Positions 8 to 40,853 of a DNA stretch of 43,457 nucleotides are shown here, piece by piece. A model generated the notes under the pieces. It did no database searches. It was not told the DNA's origin and saw only the letters and a list, made by a program, of their open reading frames with translations. Every line of letters begins with the position of its first letter. The stretch's first letter is position 1. The stretch is from Escherichia phage JL1: the sequence record JX865427. The stretch is one strand, 5' to 3'. The position numbers and the translations under genes were made by a program.

Positions 8-1393
8 TTAGTAGAAGTCTACGGTTGGAACAACGGCGATCGGACGAATCACAGGGAACAAGTGCGCAATAGGGTAGCCTGCCGCGTCATTCATGTGGTC
101 CACACCGGCAGTTTTATCCGGTTCGCCTTTCTTCAGGTCGTACACCTGCTGTTCCAGGCATTTCGCTAGTGTAGGGCATTTATCCAGGTTGACAAAATAC
201 TGGCGCACGCCCTTCGAGTTGCACATCATCGTATTCATCGCGATAAGTCTGTCTTTCACAGGTGGGTTAACGCTGTCATACTCCACCTCGAAGCCCGCGT
301 CTTCCAGTTGTGCGATATCGGACGACGACGCGTTGACCGTCTTGCGGGATTTGCCGCTGCTATCCGGGTAAACGACAACACGACCGGCAGCACAATGATC
401 GGGGTAGCGCTCCTCGATCGCCTCAATCATAGCCGGGGTATCAAACAGGTCCACGAATTCATCCACCGCGTGAATCTCGTCGCGGAACTCCCTGTTCTCG
501 GTGACTCGCTGCCGTCTGACGTACACGACCGCCGCCATTTTCGTGACGTTAAAGTCCATACCGATAATCAGCGTGTCTTCCGGCTGCACTTCTTCGGTGC
601 TGGCGTTCTCCTCGCGGTTGAACATCTTGTACACCGCGCCCGACGTAAGGTTAACAAACAGGCCGTTCAGGTACGCATCGATCAGGTTAGTCGGGTACTG
701 ACTGCGCAGCGTGTCGATAAAGTCTGCCGGTAAATGGTGGTTGTCCGTGGTCTTCGCCCGGATCAGGCGCTTCTGGCTACCCTTCTCCACCTCGAAAATT
801 TGATACATCGCCCGGTAGCCTTCCGGCGTGGACACGATGACAAACTGGCGGACGAAGCCCGCGCGCAGACGACCGAGCAATTTGTGGTATGCCGCCATTG
901 CGACGTCTTGTTTCGTGGTGTCGAACTCGTCGGCAACAATCCACGCGGCGTTGACCCCGATCAGGCGGGTATAGTTCTCCATTGATTCACAGATAACGCG
1001 AGTCCATTTGCCTTTCACCAGCACGTTATAGATCTTGTCCTGCTTATTGAACTTCCACCGGAATCCGGCCTCGTCGAATGCCTTCTCCAGTTCCGGATAC
1101 ATGATTTTAACCAGGAGTGGAATAGTCGGTTCGGTCACGATGCCGTCATAACCAGGGTTAAGTGTCAGAAGCTGGATGACCTTACGCGCAGCTACCCACG
1201 ACTTGCCACCACCGAAGCCGGAACACAGGCCGAGGATTTTAGTCTTCGTGTCGCGCAGTAGTTCAACCTGGTGCGGCAAGCAATCAGGCTGGTAAATGCG
1301 GACGGCCTGCGCAACGCGTGTGGGGCGTGGCGGTCGGTTGCGCTTTGCGATCGCGCGTTCCAGTGCGCGGTGTTCTGCCGCATAGTTACGCAT
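8..1393 (-). CDS. terminase large subunit
   Basis: 461 aa; Walker A-like GFGGGKS near N-terminus; ATPase plus nuclease-length architecture; start overlaps upstream small-subunit stop (ATGA). Confidence 0.9.
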   Translation of the reverse strand: MRNYAAEHRALERAIAKRNRPPRPTRVAQAVRIYQPDCLPHQVELLRDTKTKILGLCSGFGGGKSWVAARKVIQLLTLNPGYDGIVTEPTIPLLVKIMYPELEKAFDEAGFRWKFNKQDKIYNVLVKGKWTRVICESMENYTRLIGVNAAWIVADEFDTTKQDVAMAAYHKLLGRLRAGFVRQFVIVSTPEGYRAMYQIFEVEKGSQKRLIRAKTTDNHHLPADFIDTLRSQYPTNLIDAYLNGLFVNLTSGAVYKMFNREENASTEEVQPEDTLIIGMDFNVTKMAAVVYVRRQRVTENREFRDEIHAVDEFVDLFDTPAMIEAIEERYPDHCAAGRVVVYPDSSGKSRKTVNASSSDIAQLEDAGFEVEYDSVNPPVKDRLIAMNTMMCNSKGVRQYFVNLDKCPTLAKCLEQQVYDLKKGEPDKTAGVDHMNDAAGYPIAHLFPVIRPIAVVPTVDFY

Positions 1394-1965
1394 TATTCAC
1401 CCTGGCCTTTGCCGGAAGGTTCGACAACTACGTCGCCGTTATCATCTTCGTCGTCGTCCAGCGGTACATCGTCGCGGACGCCGTGGTTTGCTTTAAGCAG
1501 GAATGTAGCGAAGCCCGCCGCGATGGTCACGCCGCCAGCTTCCATCAGGAAAGTTTTCTGCAACTCCATAGCATCCGCCATCGCCTCGGCGAACTCCTCA
1601 TGTGCTCGCGCCCAGCGATACAGGCAAGCTACGCCCACACCGATTTCCGCGGCAAATCGACCGAAGGTTGGCATTTTGTTGCGGGGGATTACTTGCGCAG
1701 CGCCTTTAGCGGAGTAGTTCACCTGCCAGGCGTCGGCGTCGGCAAAATAGCGGCGAAGCTGGTCGCAGTAAACGGATCGGTAGTCGGTCGGGCGTCCGCA
1801 TTTGCCGCCTTTACGGCGCTTTCCGTACTCGATTTCAGGTCCGAGATTGGTGTGCTCAGTTTGCTCGCCTGGTTTACGGCGCGGGGTTACTGCTACTCGT
1901 CCGTCCAGTTTGGCGCGTCGGCCCTTAACTTTGATTTCTGCCATGATATAAGCCCTTTTGTTCAT
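1393..1965 (-). CDS. terminase small subunit (start uncertain: 1965 or 1944)
   Basis: Immediately upstream of and translationally coupled to terL; HTH-like segment GRFAAEIGVGVACLYRWARAHEEF; the ORF-track start at 2043 is a TTG with an implausible N-terminus. Confidence 0.7.
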   Translation of the reverse strand: MNKRAYIMAEIKVKGRRAKLDGRVAVTPRRKPGEQTEHTNLGPEIEYGKRRKGGKCGRPTDYRSVYCDQLRRYFADADAWQVNYSAKGAAQVIPRNKMPTFGRFAAEIGVGVACLYRWARAHEEFAEAMADAMELQKTFLMEAGGVTIAAGFATFLLKANHGVRDDVPLDDDEDDNGDVVVEPSGKGQGE

Positions 1966-2074
1966 ATGCGCCGACCATCGGCAACATAGGAGACGGCCCT
2001 GCCATCTAACGGGGATTATAACAGGCACAAAAAAGCCCACCAAATCGGCAGGCTGGGAGGATTACTAGTTGCCG

Positions 2075-3217
2075 TTACTTCAACATTTCCGGGCTAATGG
2101 TTAAGCGCGCTACTTCTCCGTAGTTGGCGCTATAGGTGATGACGTTTGCGCTGCGGCCGGACATCCAACCGCCGCGACTGGCGTAGGCGTCTTTCGCTGC
2201 GAGCGTCCTGTGCTGTTCAACAATCATGTTGCGAGACTCGACAATCTTCTGGTGGTGCAAATGACCTACGTGCGCGTAGCTGTATTCGCTCGCCCCGAAC
2301 GCCTGTCGGAATTTAGCGATCATAACCTGCTCGATAACATCGAATCGCGCTTTGTGCCCGTGGTGGAAGAATAGCGTGGTCTTTCCGTGTTGCACCATTT
2401 TGTAGACATCCGGGGACGTGTCCACATCGACGCGCGGCTCGTTCTCATACAGGGTATTGAACATCTCAGCGAGCCAAATCATACCCGATTCGTCATGATT
2501 ACCCTGGACGATTAGCAATTTGACTTTGTGGTGTTTTTGCAGCGCCAGGTCTACCACGTTGCGCACCATGCGAATCATGTAGCGGACAAGTTTCTGGTAT
2601 CGGGTGTCGGCGTCAAGTACGTGACCGCTTGCCGGTGTGACGGCATCAAGGCTATCAAAGTGCGCCATATCCCCGAGGATATTGATCACGGCAGTGCCTG
2701 CGTCTGGTGCGCGGGCGAAGGCTTCGACAAACCAGCGGTAGAACAGGTCTTCGGCGATCGCCATATCCCAGTCTTCGCCAGTCTCCTCGCCCCAGGCCAA
2801 CATCCCCAGGTGGAAGTCTGACACGGTGTACAGGTTGAGCAAGTCGAGCGCCTGGATCGGTACTGGCTGGGCTTTTACGGGCGCTGCCGGTGTGATTTCG
2901 CTGTTCATACCCTCGACAACAGCGCGCATGGCTTCGAGTTGGCGCTCTTTGTCCTGCTCAGTGATGACCCACGACATGACCTCTTCGCCATTGCCGCGCA
3001 CCAGGGCCGATACGCGCTTAACCCCAAAGCCATCGGCAACGCGCTTGCGGATTACGGCATCATTACCGTGACCAATCCCCTTTTTCGACAGGCGGGCTTT
3101 GCGCATGTAGACATTTCGAAGTGCAATGCCGTACTTCTTCGCAATCTCCTTAACCGTAGTCCCTGCCTGAATTTCTGCGATCAATTGCTCATCGGTAATT
3201 TTAGTTTGCGGGTGCAT
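2075..3217 (-). CDS. HTH domain fused to calcineurin-like metallophosphoesterase
   Basis: N-terminal HTH (TVKEIAKKYGIALRNVYMRKARL); phosphoesterase motifs DFHLG, GDMAHFD, GNHDE, HHGH, GHLHH; RBS AGGA upstream of ATG at 3217. Confidence 0.75.
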   Translation of the reverse strand: MHPQTKITDEQLIAEIQAGTTVKEIAKKYGIALRNVYMRKARLSKKGIGHGNDAVIRKRVADGFGVKRVSALVRGNGEEVMSWVITEQDKERQLEAMRAVVEGMNSEITPAAPVKAQPVPIQALDLLNLYTVSDFHLGMLAWGEETGEDWDMAIAEDLFYRWFVEAFARAPDAGTAVINILGDMAHFDSLDAVTPASGHVLDADTRYQKLVRYMIRMVRNVVDLALQKHHKVKLLIVQGNHDESGMIWLAEMFNTLYENEPRVDVDTSPDVYKMVQHGKTTLFFHHGHKARFDVIEQVMIAKFRQAFGASEYSYAHVGHLHHQKIVESRNMIVEQHRTLAAKDAYASRGGWMSGRSANVITYSANYGEVARLTISPEMLK

Positions 3218-3388
3218 ATTTAATTAATTCCTGATTAGTGGACCGGGGACAATATACCACGGTCCGTATGGCGGCGGGCTATATCAATTCGCAAATAACC
3301 ATGCCGATAAACGCCGCGGTGGTCCAGATCGCTAATACCCAAATATCTTTACGTGCCATCTTGATTACTCCTCTCGTTGATTGGTTGC

Positions 3389-3418
3389 AGTATGGCCTCT
3401 ATGTTGGTTGCGAGTCAA
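3389..3418 (-). promoter_or_regulatory. sigma70-like promoter candidate (TTGACT-18-CATACT) for the phosphoesterase/terminase operon
   Basis: Read on minus strand directly downstream of the terminator at 3427-3448; contains two GCAACCAA motif copies. Confidence 0.4.
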
Positions 3419-3426
3419 GCAATAAA

Positions 3427-3448
3427 AAGCCCGGAATTAACCGGGCTT
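3427..3448 (-). terminator. rho-independent terminator ending the lysis cassette
   Basis: Stem aagcccgg / ccgggctt with 6-nt loop, followed on the minus strand by TTTTTATT. Confidence 0.65.
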
Positions 3449-3464
3449 AATTGTTTACGCTGCG

Positions 3465-3621
3465 GGGCCGGATTCCTCCTGCGGTGGTGGGCTTGGCAGC
3501 TTCGCATCAAAGACCCCCGCGTGGCTGATAGTGTCCGCGATGATAGCGCGTGCGCCCGGATCTTCGGTTTTAGCCAGTGCGGCAAGCGCGTCCGCATTAT
3601 GATCAAGAATACTTTTTAACA
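3465..3621 (-). CDS. small hypothetical protein (52 aa)
   Basis: ORF below the track's 60-aa cutoff found by manual translation (MLKSILDHNADALAALAKTEDPGARAII...); GAGGTGA RBS 7 nt upstream of ATG; ends just before the terminator. Confidence 0.3.
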
Positions 3622-3638
3622 TACTGTGTCACCTCATA

Positions 3639-4130
3639 TTATGCTGCGTTACGACCGATTCGCTCGGCAACGTCCCACTGCTTTCCATCAAACAACGCCT
3701 GTCTGCCGATTGCGCGGCGTACCAGACCCTTAAGCACTTCACCACCTTGCTTGCGGAACTGCGGCAGAGTAGCACGGACCTTCGCCCAGTCGCCAAGTCG
3801 CACCGCATCATCGAAATCATTCGCGACGTCATCCGGTACGATCGGACCAGGGCCAGCGTTGATTACCAGGTCCACCAGCGCATCGAATTGCGCCTGGTTA
3901 ATGCTCGGATGTGCGTATTTGTTCACCCAGTCCTCAGCATACGCCACATCGCGCTTGAGCAGTTCCAGCGCTTCTTCGCGGGTAATGCTTCGAGGCGGAT
4001 TAGTGCCGGTATGACCATAACCCCAGGTGTACAGGCCGCGGGCCTGCTCTTTCTTGGTCGCGAAATACGGCACCGGGCTGAAAGCCTCCCATGCTGCCGT
4101 AAATCGTAGACCGTTGTCACTGAATCGCAT
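3639..4130 (-). CDS. endolysin, lysozyme family (GH24-like)
   Basis: 163 aa; lysozyme-like segment GLYTWGYGHTG with typical flanking residues; adjacent to two small membrane-protein genes. Confidence 0.8.
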   Translation of the reverse strand: MRFSDNGLRFTAAWEAFSPVPYFATKKEQARGLYTWGYGHTGTNPPRSITREEALELLKRDVAYAEDWVNKYAHPSINQAQFDALVDLVINAGPGPIVPDDVANDFDDAVRLGDWAKVRATLPQFRKQGGEVLKGLVRRAIGRQALFDGKQWDVAERIGRNAA

Positions 4131-4362
4131 GTTTTACCCCATTCAAAACAGCATTACGCAGTGTGCGCAATGCAAACAGCCAGATTAACGCGGTCCAGGT
4201 GGTATCCGATACGTCTCCTGTTTGCAACAGTCCGATAATACAGATCATTGCCGTTAGCAGATACAGCACCCGACCGAAAATGCCATCCTGGACGGACGGC
4301 GCATACACGTTAAACAGGGACGAAGCCCCGATGATAACAAACAACAGGACGGAGATAATCAT
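4117..4362 (-). CDS. holin/antiholin-like small membrane protein
   Basis: 81 aa with 2-3 hydrophobic helices; overlaps endolysin start and upstream holin stop. Confidence 0.6.
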   Translation of the reverse strand: MIISVLLFVIIGASSLFNVYAPSVQDGIFGRVLYLLTAMICIIGLLQTGDVSDTTWTALIWLFALRTLRNAVLNGVKHAIQ

Positions 4363-4649
4363 TTTGCACCCCCCGGAAGTCGGAACGACGCAATAGTCTC
4401 CCTGATCCGGTCGGCGATTGGCATCCAGAAGATCGCGGTTACGAAGCCCAAACCGGCGACAGTGCGCTCACCCGACAAACCAGCCCACTCAGCGATAGCC
4501 GGTGCGCCAAATATGGCACACAGGAAGCCAACTACGACATACAAAACGAAGTTTAGCGGCCCTTTCGTAGCCTCACCATGAATGCGTGCGCCTACGAAGC
4601 CACCCGCCAGACATGCCAGGGCGAATAGCCACTCGTTTAGCTTATCCAT
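4359..4649 (-). CDS. holin-like membrane protein
   Basis: 96 aa with three hydrophobic segments and a charged C-terminus; first gene of the lysis cassette. Confidence 0.65.
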   Translation of the reverse strand: MDKLNEWLFALACLAGGFVGARIHGEATKGPLNFVLYVVVGFLCAIFGAPAIAEWAGLSGERTVAGLGFVTAIFWMPIADRIRETIASFRLPGGAK

Positions 4650-4650
4650 A

Positions 4651-4690
4651 AAAAAAGTCCCAGTAAGTTTTAGCTCACTGGGACTATATC
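4651..4690 (-). terminator. rho-independent terminator abutting the holin start codon
   Basis: Minus strand: agtcccagtgagctaaaacttactgggact followed by TTTTTTT, then ATG of holin with no intervening Shine-Dalgarno. Confidence 0.6.
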
Positions 4691-4702
4691 ACGCTTGCAT
4701 AA

Positions 4703-6397: not shown

Positions 6398-6424
6398 GTT
6401 CCGCCCTCCTGTTGGTGTGCAACC

Positions 6425-6453
6425 AATATAGCAGGGTGCCGGGGTGGATGCAA
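6425..6453 (-). promoter_or_regulatory. sigma70-like promoter TTGCAT-17-TATATT
   Basis: Read on minus strand; -35 embedded in ATTGGTTGCAT, second ATTGGTTGCA copy immediately after -10; ~20 nt upstream of RBS/ATG at 6397. Confidence 0.55.
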
Positions 6454-6612
6454 CCAATATTAATCACGCGCATGAAAAAGTTGATCGCTATCTGCTGTGA
6501 CTGCAAATTGCATTTTTCGCCCCACGTTCTGCATCTTGCATTGGTTGCCTAGTTCAGCGACGACCGCAATCCGCAACATGCTGCCGTATATTTTGCAATC
6601 CCGGATTTTATG

Positions 6613-6783: not shown

Positions 6784-6876
6784 TTTTATTGCATAACTAT
6801 GCATTATATTCACACTACACGGCAACCAATGCGACCAGCTAAAAGCACACAAAATGGCAACCAATGCGCGCAAAAT

Positions 6877-19112: not shown

Positions 19113-19117
19113 ATTGG

Positions 19118-19146
19118 TTGCATAACCGTATTGGTTGCATTATATT
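19118..19146 (+). promoter_or_regulatory. promoter TTGCAT-17-TATATT with tandem ATTGGTTGCAT motifs
   Basis: Two direct copies of ATTGGTTGCAT, one forming the -35 and one abutting the -10. Confidence 0.55.
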
Positions 19147-19193: not shown

Positions 19194-19529
19194 ATGAAAA
19201 TTTTACAAGAAGAGAAAAATTACTGGGCCGCACAATGCCTCGAAGCCCGCGAGCAGGCCGAACGAGCTAACGCGTTGGCGGACACCAACCAGGCGCTATA
19301 TGAAGGAGAGAAGAAAGTGCGCCAGGAGCTAGAGGAGCGCTTCGAACTGCTGTTCGAATTGATGGGGATTATGCAGCGCACCGGATACACCACCAGCGTT
19401 GCACTAAACCGCATCACTGCCGACGGGCTGCGTGAGCATTGCAAACGGGCCGAGGAGTACGTGCGTCCGAAGGGCCGCCAGTCTAAGATTGCCCTGTACG
19501 CGATAGACCCAGATCATGCAGAAGAGTGA
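19194..19529 (+). CDS. hypothetical protein (coiled-coil-like)
   Basis: 111-aa charged helical sequence. Confidence 0.5.
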   Translation: MKILQEEKNYWAAQCLEAREQAERANALADTNQALYEGEKKVRQELEERFELLFELMGIMQRTGYTTSVALNRITADGLREHCKRAEEYVRPKGRQSKIALYAIDPDHAEE

Positions 19530-20206: not shown

Positions 20207-20673
20207 AATTACTGATTTGTGATCTGGATGGCGTTATTAATGGATCAAGCGATGCGCGCGCCGACCTGGTGCCGGGGATAAAAACGAAATCCACCTTTTG
20301 GGCGAAGTGGCACAAAGCGCACGTCCGCGAAGACCTGAACATGGATATGCTGCCGCTACTGCGCATGTATAAAGAGCAAGGCTTCGAGATCGCGTATCTG
20401 ACAAACCGGCAGCGCGAATGCTGGGACACCACCGCCGAGCAATTGGAGGTCTTCCCGGTCGGCCGGTTGTTTATGCGCCACATGCTGGACGACACCCCGC
20501 CGCCAGAGTTTAAGGCGTGCGCCGTGTTCAAAATGGTCTGCTACGCGGACGTGTCTGAACTGGTCATCATTGAAGATTGCGAGAAGAACATCGCGGCAAT
20601 TCGTCGGGCGTGTGGTGATTTGGTCCCGAAAATTTACGCAATAAACGTTGCAAAATTCACTTGCAACCAATAG
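20203..20673 (+). CDS. HAD-superfamily phosphatase-like protein
   Basis: Motif I DLDGV at N-terminus; downstream LTNR and acidic motifs. Confidence 0.6.
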   Translation: MKLLICDLDGVINGSSDARADLVPGIKTKSTFWAKWHKAHVREDLNMDMLPLLRMYKEQGFEIAYLTNRQRECWDTTAEQLEVFPVGRLFMRHMLDDTPPPEFKACAVFKMVCYADVSELVIIEDCEKNIAAIRRACGDLVPKIYAINVAKFTCNQ

Positions 20674-20690
20674 GTTGGTTGCACTATAGT
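20661..20690 (+). promoter_or_regulatory. promoter TTGCAA-18-TATAGT over an inverted TGCAACCAA repeat
   Basis: Palindrome tgcaaccaa-tagg-ttggttgca spans -35 and spacer. Confidence 0.5.
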
Positions 20691-40651: not shown

Positions 40652-40853
40652 CCTCTTTCGTGATAGTCCGGTATTCTACGTCGCGGGCTTGTTCGGCCTG
40701 CACGGAGCGCTCAACAACTTTAGTTTGCTGCCGTTGGGCTTTGGCTTGCGCTTCTTGCGCCGCCTCCGCCACTACGCCAGCGCGATAGGAGTCGCCTAGC
40801 CAGAATCCTACCGCCAGACCGATAACCAGTCCAATCGCTGCATACTTAATCAC
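40524..40853 (-). CDS. i-spanin (Rz-like)
   Basis: N-terminal TM helix followed by A/Q/E-rich helical periplasmic domain; overlaps the lipoprotein ORF. Confidence 0.6.
   Translation of the reverse strand: MIKYAAIGLVIGLAVGFWLGDSYRAGVVAEAAQEAQAKAQRQQTKVVERSVQAEQARDVEYRTITKEVVKYVTRPNRPDCSFDAERVRIKQRAVDAANGVGTATAVQVR

Follow-up and report, generated by a model that had tools for sequence, protein, structure and literature searches.

A helix-turn-helix-fused metallophosphoesterase gene between the lysis and terminase genes of Escherichia phage JL1, a candidate host-takeover nuclease

The stretch of DNA analyzed here (Escherichia phage JL1, sequence record JX865427; 43,457 nucleotides [nt] in full, hereafter the window) carries a gene for a 380-amino-acid (aa) protein in which a helix-turn-helix (HTH) is fused to the N terminus of a metallophosphoesterase (MPE) core with an intact catalytic set and a nuclease-like fold. 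The gene is flanked by regulatory signals of its own, and its position relative to the terminase genes is not conserved in relatives. We tentatively propose, at somewhat less than an even chance, that the protein is a DNA-binding, host-takeover metallonuclease that would degrade host or competing DNA and feed nucleotides to phage replication. The gene and the parts of its product are as follows:

2075..3217, minus strand: HTH-MPE gene, ATG start, 380 aa, PHROG 704 (open reading frame [ORF] listing, profile and alignment evidence)
3232-3228, minus strand: ribosome-binding site AGGAA of the HTH-MPE gene
3083..3193, minus strand: LuxR/GerE-type HTH region, aa 9-45 (helices predicted by AlphaFold2 [AF2] and GerE profile match)
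2903..3028, minus strand: conserved beta-hairpin (aa 64-88) and helix (aa 90-105), with G77 and W83 nearly invariant (alignment, AF2)
2078..2857, minus strand: MPE core region, aa 121-380 (alignment, AF2, structure search)

An earlier note on this DNA, made from the letters alone, had ascribed a complete calcineurin-like phosphoesterase motif set to the protein, and the family alignment bears this out. The motifs D134-x-H136, G182-D183(-x-x-H186), G239-N240-H241-D242, H286, and G318-H319-x-H321 are all present. Among 136 representatives (32 to 47% identical to the query; the conservation analysis was repeated with 69 sequences), D134, H136, G182, D183, N240, H241, H286, G318, and H321 were invariant, H186, D242, and H319 were conserved in at least 90%, and H288 was also near-invariant. 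The five superfamily motifs (DxH, GD, GNH[DE], H, GHxH), which give seven metal ligands, were thus found with every ligand invariant or at least 90% conserved, and such invariance across distant representatives indicates that the set is complete and under strong selection. The beta-sandwich fold of MPEs was likewise recovered (AF2 with the family alignment; mean predicted local distance difference test [pLDDT] score, 92.2; predicted template modeling score, 0.81), and a conserved insert after motif II (H186, D188, T194, D202, R206) is specific to the family.

The HTH fused to the N terminus of the MPE was confirmed as well. AF2 placed its helices at residues 9-17, 22-29, and 33-45 (pLDDT, ~93-95), followed by a short helix, and a profile of the N-terminal 112 residues matched the whole LuxR-type domain of GerE (1fse; E = 4.3e-5, residues 5-57), with DesR, NarL, VraR, and RhlR as the subsequent matches. 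Individual family members matched Sigma70_r4_2 (1.5e-9), GerE (2.4e-8), and also HTH_8 and HTH_1, and Pfam gave sub-threshold HTH matches for the query protein. An N-terminal extension of 96 to 159 aa with the signature G-S...AA..LG..S..TV is present in 136/136 representatives, and both T1 ST16 and the Kagunavirus orthologue align with the window protein from residue 1-4. Since the extension is universal and the orthologues align from their first residues, the HTH is not an artefact of a wrong start choice, the objection by which the earlier note had thought that its reading might be overturned.

The protein is 98% identical to deposited Dhillonvirus proteins, and all 15/15 Dhillonvirus loci from IMG/VR encode it at 95-99% identity. 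It matches PHROG 704 ("DNA repair exonuclease") over its full length (E = 7.4e-161; residues 5-380 against positions 2-390 of the 390 in the profile), a family that has members in 2,057 phage records and counts among the core genes of Drexlerviridae; the family is therefore already catalogued, under an automatic label only. A scan of 1.84 billion cluster representatives yielded 4,629 related protein clusters (defined at 50% identity), of which 1,124 scored at E ≤ 1e-30. When 69 relatives were scanned with Pfam, PF00149 was found at E ≤ 1e-3 in 13/69 only, and the family is a divergent MPE branch without a Pfam family of its own. Searches of PADLOC, NCBIfam, and Rfam returned no relevant match, and a sequence search of the PDB with the single protein gave spurious repeat-protein matches only.

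As to the kind of MPE, the best Foldseek matches in the PDB were Thermotoga maritima Mre11, the archaeal DNA polymerase D subunit PolD DP1, and Methanocaldococcus jannaschii Mre11 (E ~1e-8 to 1e-7), with Rv0805, purple acid phosphatases, and others ranking lower. The motif variants of Mre11/SbcD-type nucleases (GDxxH, GNHD) are present together with this closest-fold match. No Rad50/SbcC gene is annotated near the MPE gene in any locus examined. The earlier suggestion of an Mre11/SbcD-like nuclease is thus upheld for the motifs and the fold and not for the rest, as the capping domain and an adjacent Rad50/SbcC gene are missing. On its sequence and predicted model, the protein would be a nuclease-type MPE rather than a member of Mre11/SbcD proper, and a LuxR-type HTH combined with an Mre11/DP1-like core that lacks Rad50 makes it a variant of nuclease kinds already known. 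The same note had offered, as another option, a protein phosphatase with a DNA-targeting function. Such a Ser/Thr phosphatase, resembling the PPase/NinI that lambda carries, would belong to the same superfamily, but the signature of PPP Ser/Thr phosphatases (GDxHG, GDxVDRG, GNHE) was not found in the protein, and we regard this option as extremely unlikely.

Whether the gene belongs to the packaging genes was assessed from the signals and the gene order around it. As the earlier note had stated, it lies directly upstream of terS and terL, from which it is separated by two elements:

2034..2054, minus strand: intrinsic terminator closing the MPE unit (hairpin and U6, −12.3 kcal/mol)
2015..2023, minus strand: extended −10 TGtTATAAT, promoter-like element of terS/terL that marks the packaging operon boundary (read from the sequence)
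1393-1944, minus strand: terS
8-1393, minus strand: terL

The terminator (2054-2034) and the extended −10 element (TGnTATAAT) between the MPE gene and terS are kept in every Dhillonvirus locus reaching terS; in one of them (L015) the terminator stem shows a compensatory change and the extended −10 reads TGaTATAAT. Every Dhillonvirus locus long enough to show it has the MPE gene directly upstream of terS/terL, a linkage confined to the genus. Because of the terminator and extended −10 before terS, the MPE gene's own upstream element, and this genus-only linkage, the gene does not belong to the packaging operon, which it had been described as leading.

A packaging or maturation nuclease, in which the HTH-MPE protein assists TerS/TerL in cutting or trimming concatemers, as HK97-type terminases are assisted by HNH proteins, would agree with the gene order in Dhillonvirus. 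It would also agree with that of one unrelated metagenomic phage with a lambda-type (Nu1/GpA-type) terminase, in which the order is lysis genes, MPE gene, small ORF, terS, and terL; the boundary position therefore recurs without tracking the terminase type. TerL itself, however, already carries the packaging nuclease, and the conserved terminator and separate promoter-like element intervene before terS. Moreover, in the Kagunavirus vB_VIPECOTH07, whose MPE is 76% identical and whose terS belongs to the same PHROG (3064), the two genes are ~30 kb apart and on opposite strands, ST16 of T1 lies 32 kb from terS, and in Drexlerviridae it is the lysis cassette that is the conserved neighbor (PMC13164509). 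The position of the MPE gene being independent of the terminase in relatives, a role in DNA maturation, as once suggested for this gene, is not supported, and we consider it very unlikely.

Outside Dhillonvirus, homologues at 44-76% identity precede the lysis cassette (T1-like phages) or lie antisense within the tail module (Kagunavirus). In T1, ST16 is flanked by annotated terminators and followed by genes for an HNH protein, ST14, holin, endolysin, and spanin; in Tlsvirus YSP2 and Webervirus Domnhall, the MPE gene and optional HAD and kinase genes precede those for holin, endolysin, and spanin. A 2026 survey of gene order, in which function was not assayed, reported exonuclease-holin-endolysin-spanin in 508/522 Drexlerviridae (PMC13164509). 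In vB_VIPECOTH07, the antisense island in the tail module encodes, in order, an Imm-like membrane protein, the MPE, a HAD phosphatase, and a P-loop kinase, and the arrangement in Jerseyvirus SP-101 is similar. In Kagunavirus, Jerseyvirus, T1, Tlsvirus, and Webervirus, the MPE gene is no longer linked to the terminase. It stands beside an endolysin gene in a Vibrio phage and in a cyanophage, and in other contigs it is surrounded by early or recombination genes or adjoins an integrase gene. The gene thus acts like a mobile module of a single gene, found where other modules meet. In the Kagunavirus locus L083 (30377-32773), the Imm_superinfect, MPE, HAD phosphatase, and kinase island runs antisense to the tail-morphogenesis genes around it and has the look of a moron-like accessory cassette.

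Downstream of the MPE gene, Kagunavirus and Webervirus carry genes for a HAD_PNKP 3'-phosphatase (PF25109, E = 1e-19 to 1e-20, above threshold) and a P-loop kinase. The trio occurs in 18/56 non-Dhillonvirus IMG/VR loci, and in Kagunavirus its stop and start codons overlap. In Drexlerviridae without an SH3 gene, these two genes are the commonest neighbors downstream of the exonuclease (PMC13164509). These neighbors point to nucleotide or DNA-end metabolism, and they could also be read as partners of an end-healing phosphoesterase (a 2',3'-cyclic phosphodiesterase or 3'-phosphatase) that acts with the Pnkp-like HAD phosphatase and the kinase on RNA, e.g., tRNA cut by host anticodon nucleases, or on DNA ends. 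The overlapping codons of the Kagunavirus genes, the trio in Webervirus and the IMG/VR loci, and the survey counts favor such a role. However, no partners adjoin the gene in the window or ST16 in T1, where pnk is 36 kb off, no credible ligase is found in the annotated genomes examined (a 152-aa "DNA ligase" of phage HH3 being doubtful), and the HTH suggests a double-stranded DNA ligand over RNA, so that we hold end healing to be unlikely. In two loci (L072, 6122-6607; L074, 6166-6657), the gene labeled "polynucleotide kinase" (PHROG 415) encodes a Pnkp-type HAD 3'-phosphatase (DxDGT; PF25109) and not a kinase; any kinase activity there would lie in the next gene, annotated "dNMP kinase," a generic P-loop kinase.

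Upstream of the gene, the promoter with GCAACCAA motifs that had been noted earlier was recovered, together with an element closer to the start codon:

3389..3418, minus strand: sigma-70-like promoter TTGACT-18-CATACT (9/12 consensus match)
3404..3411, minus strand: GCAACCAA copy 1, abutting the −35 element
3381..3388, minus strand: GCAACCAA copy 2, directly downstream of the −10 element
3251..3259, minus strand: extended −10-like TGgTATATT (TGrTATATT in the genus), ~35 nt before the ATG (upstream alignment)
3279..3359, minus strand: 26-codon hydrophobic micro-ORF, MARKDIWVLAIWTTAAFIGMVICELI (ORF listing)

The TTGACT/CATACT promoter, the GCAACCAA pair, and the micro-ORF make up a cassette that is optional, being present in ~12/16 Dhillonvirus loci and missing from L009-L011; L015 keeps just TTGACT and one GCAACCAA copy. 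TGrTATATT, which from its sequence may act as the promoter of the gene, is the sole upstream element common to all 16/16 Dhillonvirus loci. The two arms of an imperfect inverted repeat (3265-3260/3245-3240; fold, −13.9 kcal/mol) lie on either side of it in the window. Autoregulation via this repeat over the gene's −10 was considered and is not supported: only some Dhillonviruses have a perfect copy, that of the window is degenerate, and L009-L011, L015, and all other lineages have none. The 8-mer GCAACCAA occurs 18 times in the window against 1.95 expected (~nine-fold over-represented), at 3381-3411, 5690, 6419-6457, 6541, 6822-6864, 9673, 12592, 16172, 19114-19138, 20663-20682 (a palindromic pair), 23752, 29208, and 39844, with TTGGTGTGCAACCAA at 6419 and 39844. 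Its copies are frequently paired, in or adjacent to promoter-like sequences, and Dhillonviruses share the motif, with 18 copies per genome; Kaguna/Jersey-type loci show no enrichment. Binding of GCAACCAA by the HTH was also rejected, given a single copy in the Kagunavirus genome with the 76%-identical MPE and 8 copies in T1 that are mostly intragenic and not promoter associated. Because it is nearly missing from Kagunavirus and not promoter associated in T1, GCAACCAA is probably the operator of another Dhillonvirus or host regulator and not of the HTH-MPE protein. A cognate site of the HTH was not found: the occurrence of GCAACCAA is unrelated to that of the gene, whose own promoter has an inverted repeat that is not conserved.

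These results bear on a further explanation, namely, a small-nucleotide or second-messenger phosphodiesterase, or "trigger enzyme," that hydrolyzes a cyclic nucleotide, a deoxynucleoside tri- or diphosphate, or an immune signal, with the HTH as a substrate-responsive regulator. The inverted repeat that could have served such a regulator is variable within the genus and without equivalent in other lineages, GCAACCAA is distributed independently of the gene, nucleases rank first in the structure comparison, and no PADLOC or anti-defense family match was found. We judge a trigger enzyme to be distinctly improbable.

The possible 26-codon hydrophobic micro-ORF of the earlier note was substantiated by its Shine-Dalgarno sequence and the pattern of its variation. 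It encodes a single hydrophobic helix, is preceded 8 nt upstream by AGGAG (3372-3368), and is kept in ~11/16 Dhillonvirus loci and missing from 4-5/16. Variable sites among Dhillonviruses number 10/7/2 at codon positions 3/1/2, a third-position bias, and the copy in L013 differs by 5 synonymous and 0 non-synonymous codon changes. In phage HH3 the stop codon is lost, and the ORF is annotated as a 52-aa coding sequence. In L005 and L007, ~175 nt extra, apparently an additional ORF, lie between the micro-ORF and the MPE gene, which marks this interval as a hotspot of small-gene gain and loss.

Small hydrophobic ORFs upstream of the MPE gene are present in several lineages, and this is the new point of the present analysis. 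In T1 (L076, ~40750-40821), a 23-aa ORF, MKLYFAVVLTPLISFSVMYFIIM, lies 7 nt before the ST16 ATG and is not in the RefSeq annotation; a 27-aa hydrophobic ORF precedes the MPE gene in YSP2, and one of 25-28 aa that overlaps the ribosome-binding site does so in Webervirus. Analogous ORFs occur in L052 and L071, and Kaguna/Jersey-type phages encode a 59-63-aa Imm_superinfect protein (PF14373) before the MPE gene. A hydrophobic ORF of 22-32 aa was found in 78 of 80 further Drexlerviridae loci (L084-L163), its end lying 1-27 nt short of the aligned MPE start. The Drexlerviridae ORFs (T1 L076; L079; L074; L084-L163) share a mid-helix Pro and an MYxIVM-like C terminus, and in all three annotated records examined (T1, YSP2, Domnhall) the ORF is unannotated; in a Webervirus subgroup, variable sites number 7/1/9 at codon positions 1/2/3. 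In a uniform test, 45/77 MPE loci were positive versus 19% of control ORFs, the loci not being phylogenetically independent. None of ten small upstream peptides matched a PHROG, and no such ORF was seen in the Vibrio phage, Pam1, and several metagenomic MPE loci. With these loci and the 4-5 Dhillonvirus loci that have no micro-ORF, the pairing is suggestive without being obligatory.

A conserved small partner downstream of the gene was also considered and rejected. A 70-aa ORF overlapping the MPE stop codon (ATGA) is found in 6/11 Dhillonvirus loci (L001, L002, L004, and L013-L015; not L007 and L009-L011) and not in the window. Small ORFs also come after the MPE gene in L080 and L082 (overlapping the stop codon in L082), but no similarity was found among them or between them and the 70-aa ORF.

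The upstream peptides raise the possibility of membrane-coupled exclusion, in which the peptide would bring the nuclease to the inner membrane or regulate it there, so that incoming DNA of competing phages is destroyed or DNA entry is controlled. The recurrence of a small hydrophobic ORF in Dhillonvirus and in nearly all of the further Drexlerviridae loci, the Imm_superinfect gene of Kaguna/Jersey-type phages, and the excess over control ORFs speak for it, as does T5, in which a gene for a 65-aa protein with two transmembrane (TM) segments directly precedes A1, whose product has been reported to be membrane associated. Against it stand the loci that have no such ORF, among them those 4-5 of the 16 Dhillonvirus loci, two distant A1 homologues whose loci have no small membrane-protein gene upstream, three kinds of peptide without detectable mutual homology, and the non-independence of the supporting loci. 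On balance, we hold exclusion to be unlikely.

T5 A1 is the best functional analogue of the window protein. A1 has been reported as necessary and sufficient for host-DNA degradation and described as a predicted metallophosphatase that resembles double-strand-break-repair nucleases and polymerase proofreading subunits (2026 preprint), i.e., the same structural neighbors as those found here, and it has been modeled as an N-terminal DNA-binding and a C-terminal nuclease domain (bioRxiv 10.1101/2022.08.27.505566). An alignment of 54 A1 homologues shows an invariant MPE signature (GD304xH306, D340, N396-H397-D398, H476, H501xH503), and some distant homologues have Pfam HTH matches, their position unspecified and at least one of them faint. 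The T5 operon comprises A2 (DNA binding), the 65-aa two-TM protein, A1, and further on dmp (5'-dNMPase). A same-family link to A1 was rejected, the hhalign score being too weak, and A1 is therefore an analogue and not a demonstrated homologue; it was not visible among the 50 BFVD matches listed, many of them nameless. A second precedent is Gp48 of the cluster A mycobacteriophage A10ZJ24, an MPE reported to be a phosphodiesterase that damages host genomic DNA and serves in host-defense evasion (PMC12287305). Its motif-I aspartate is residue 10 (D10G mutant; PMC12287305), from which it follows that Gp48 has no N-terminal HTH domain.

Taken together, the gene neighbors in relatives, the A1 analogue, and the Gp48 precedent make a DNA-tethered host-takeover nuclease the best supported reading. 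The LuxR/GerE-type HTH would bind DNA, and a binuclear, probably Mn2+-dependent core of the Mre11/SbcD/PolD-DP1 type would cut phosphodiester bonds with no Rad50/SbcC-type partner required. The MPE gene, with the micro-ORF where present, may form its own small transcription unit with promoter-like elements and a terminator at the lysis/packaging boundary, and probably passes, as a mobile module of one gene, between siphophages of the T1-like, Dhillon-, Kaguna-, and Jersey-types. Host or competing DNA would be broken down and the nucleotides supplied to phage replication. The DNA substrate, the degradation of host DNA, and the timing of expression are what we infer.

Several observations weigh against a host-takeover nuclease. 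The protein misses the Pfam gathering thresholds for Metallophos (23.2 bits versus 27) and Metallophos_2 (20.2 versus 21.5). Alignment of the window family with the A1 family by hhalign gave a probability of 22% (E ~1e-3), with only motifs III-V and a C-terminal "ITY" lining up. T5 A1 is pre-early, whereas the window gene adjoins late and lysis genes, and the HAD phosphatase and kinase of the relatives have no homologue in the window (tblastn E > 0.2). One family member is on a temperate-looking contig with an integrase, where wholesale destruction of host DNA would be awkward. No functional study of the PHROG 704 family was found in the literature, only a description of its synteny (PMC13164509).

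A bolder version, which we put forward as possible but doubtful, is that the micro-ORF and the HTH-MPE gene constitute a conserved host-takeover module in which a translationally coupled TM microprotein anchors or gates a Rad50-independent nuclease; this would be the T1-, Dhillon-, and Guernsey-phage counterpart of the T5 A2-membrane protein-A1 system and the host-chromosome degradation function of T1-like phages. The family spans model phages (T1, SECphi4) and groups of coliphages and Klebsiella and Salmonella phages, groups from which therapy candidates are drawn. If the protein is A1-like, it would account for the dismantling of the host chromosome by T1-like phages and could bear on the frequency of generalized transduction, which is higher in T1 mutants that are defective in breaking down host DNA. 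The protein would also be a plausible trigger or target of defense systems that sense DNA damage or released nucleotides, and it would show that an HTH fused to a stand-alone Mre11-like core can take the place of Rad50 in making the core DNA competent. Separately, the membrane micro-ORFs are an annotation gap that has been overlooked.

The first 6 kb of the window is 92-95% identical in nucleotide sequence to the Escherichia coli Dhillonvirus phages PC2, Sponge, B2, jat, and SECphi4. The lysis unit lies upstream of the micro-ORF and the MPE gene:

4359-4649 and 4117-4362, minus strand: two holin genes
3639-4130, minus strand: lysozyme gene
3455-3622, minus strand: 55-aa ORF, PHROG 11068, after lysozyme
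3427..3448, minus strand: intrinsic terminator closing the lysis unit (holins, lysozyme, 55-aa ORF), 8-bp GC-rich stem and U-run

This terminator (folding energy, −15.8 kcal/mol; z = −5.2) is kept in Dhillonvirus loci. The 55-aa ORF carries conflicting labels in relatives ("major tail protein" in HH3, "lysozyme downstream ORF" in Sponge) and is swapped for a 36%-identical version in some Dhillonviruses. Upstream of the first holin gene, a sub-threshold Rfam match to the cyanobacterial small RNA NsiR1 (4649-4701, minus strand; 28.7 bits versus 39) falls on a strong terminator hairpin and is almost certainly due to chance. On the terminase side, the conserved 5' leader of terS (1945-2014, minus strand) contains two hairpins, GAUGGC/GCCGUC and UGCCGA/UCGGCG, the first with compensatory changes in L015; the fold z-score of −0.9 is unremarkable, and the hairpins could have a regulatory or pac-related role. 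Four deposited linear genomes, isolates in IMG/VR (L005, L006, L008, and L012), share an identical end site (...GGGCTTTTTTGTGCCTGT) directly before the terS TATAAT, which could be a shared physical end or an inherited record-start convention; the P22 gp3/Sf6-like look of terS would suggest headful packaging. At 19194-19526, the window has a homologue (64% identity) of the HH3 protein labeled "DNA ligase," a doubtful label because 152 aa is far too short for a ligase.

Compared with known systems, the window protein shows no sequence feature that sets it apart from PHROG 704 and T1 ST16, the latter aligning with it end to end, including the HTH; the difference is one of genomic position alone, ST16 standing before the lysis cassette and the window gene after it and before terS. 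Mre11/SbcD proteins have a C-terminal capping domain as well as a region that binds Rad50/SbcC; the window protein has neither, carries an N-terminal HTH and beta-hairpin domain instead, and is 12-17% identical to them. Archaeal PolD DP1, a 3'-5' proofreading exonuclease, is 12% identical; unlike DP1, the window protein has no predicted N-terminal OB fold and no DP2 partner, being a stand-alone phage protein. In Clostridium thermocellum Pnkp, an MPE domain is part of an end-healing enzyme. Like this enzyme and T4 Pnkp, the relatives link an MPE with a HAD_PNKP phosphatase and a P-loop kinase; their genes, however, are separate and not fused, there is no ligase module, the partners are not in the window, and the window protein is structurally nearer to nucleases than to lambda-phosphatase-type MPEs. 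A10ZJ24 Gp48 is, like the window protein, a phage MPE with five motifs, from a phage of a different host group, and the likeness is at the superfamily level. T5 A1 shares with the window protein the order of an N-terminal DNA-binding domain and a C-terminal MPE nuclease domain. It differs in length (556 versus 380 aa) and in being essential and pre-early and working with a separate DNA-binding partner, A2, whereas the membrane-protein gene directly upstream of A1 and dmp in its operon parallel the micro-ORF or Imm gene and the HAD phosphatase of the MPE loci.

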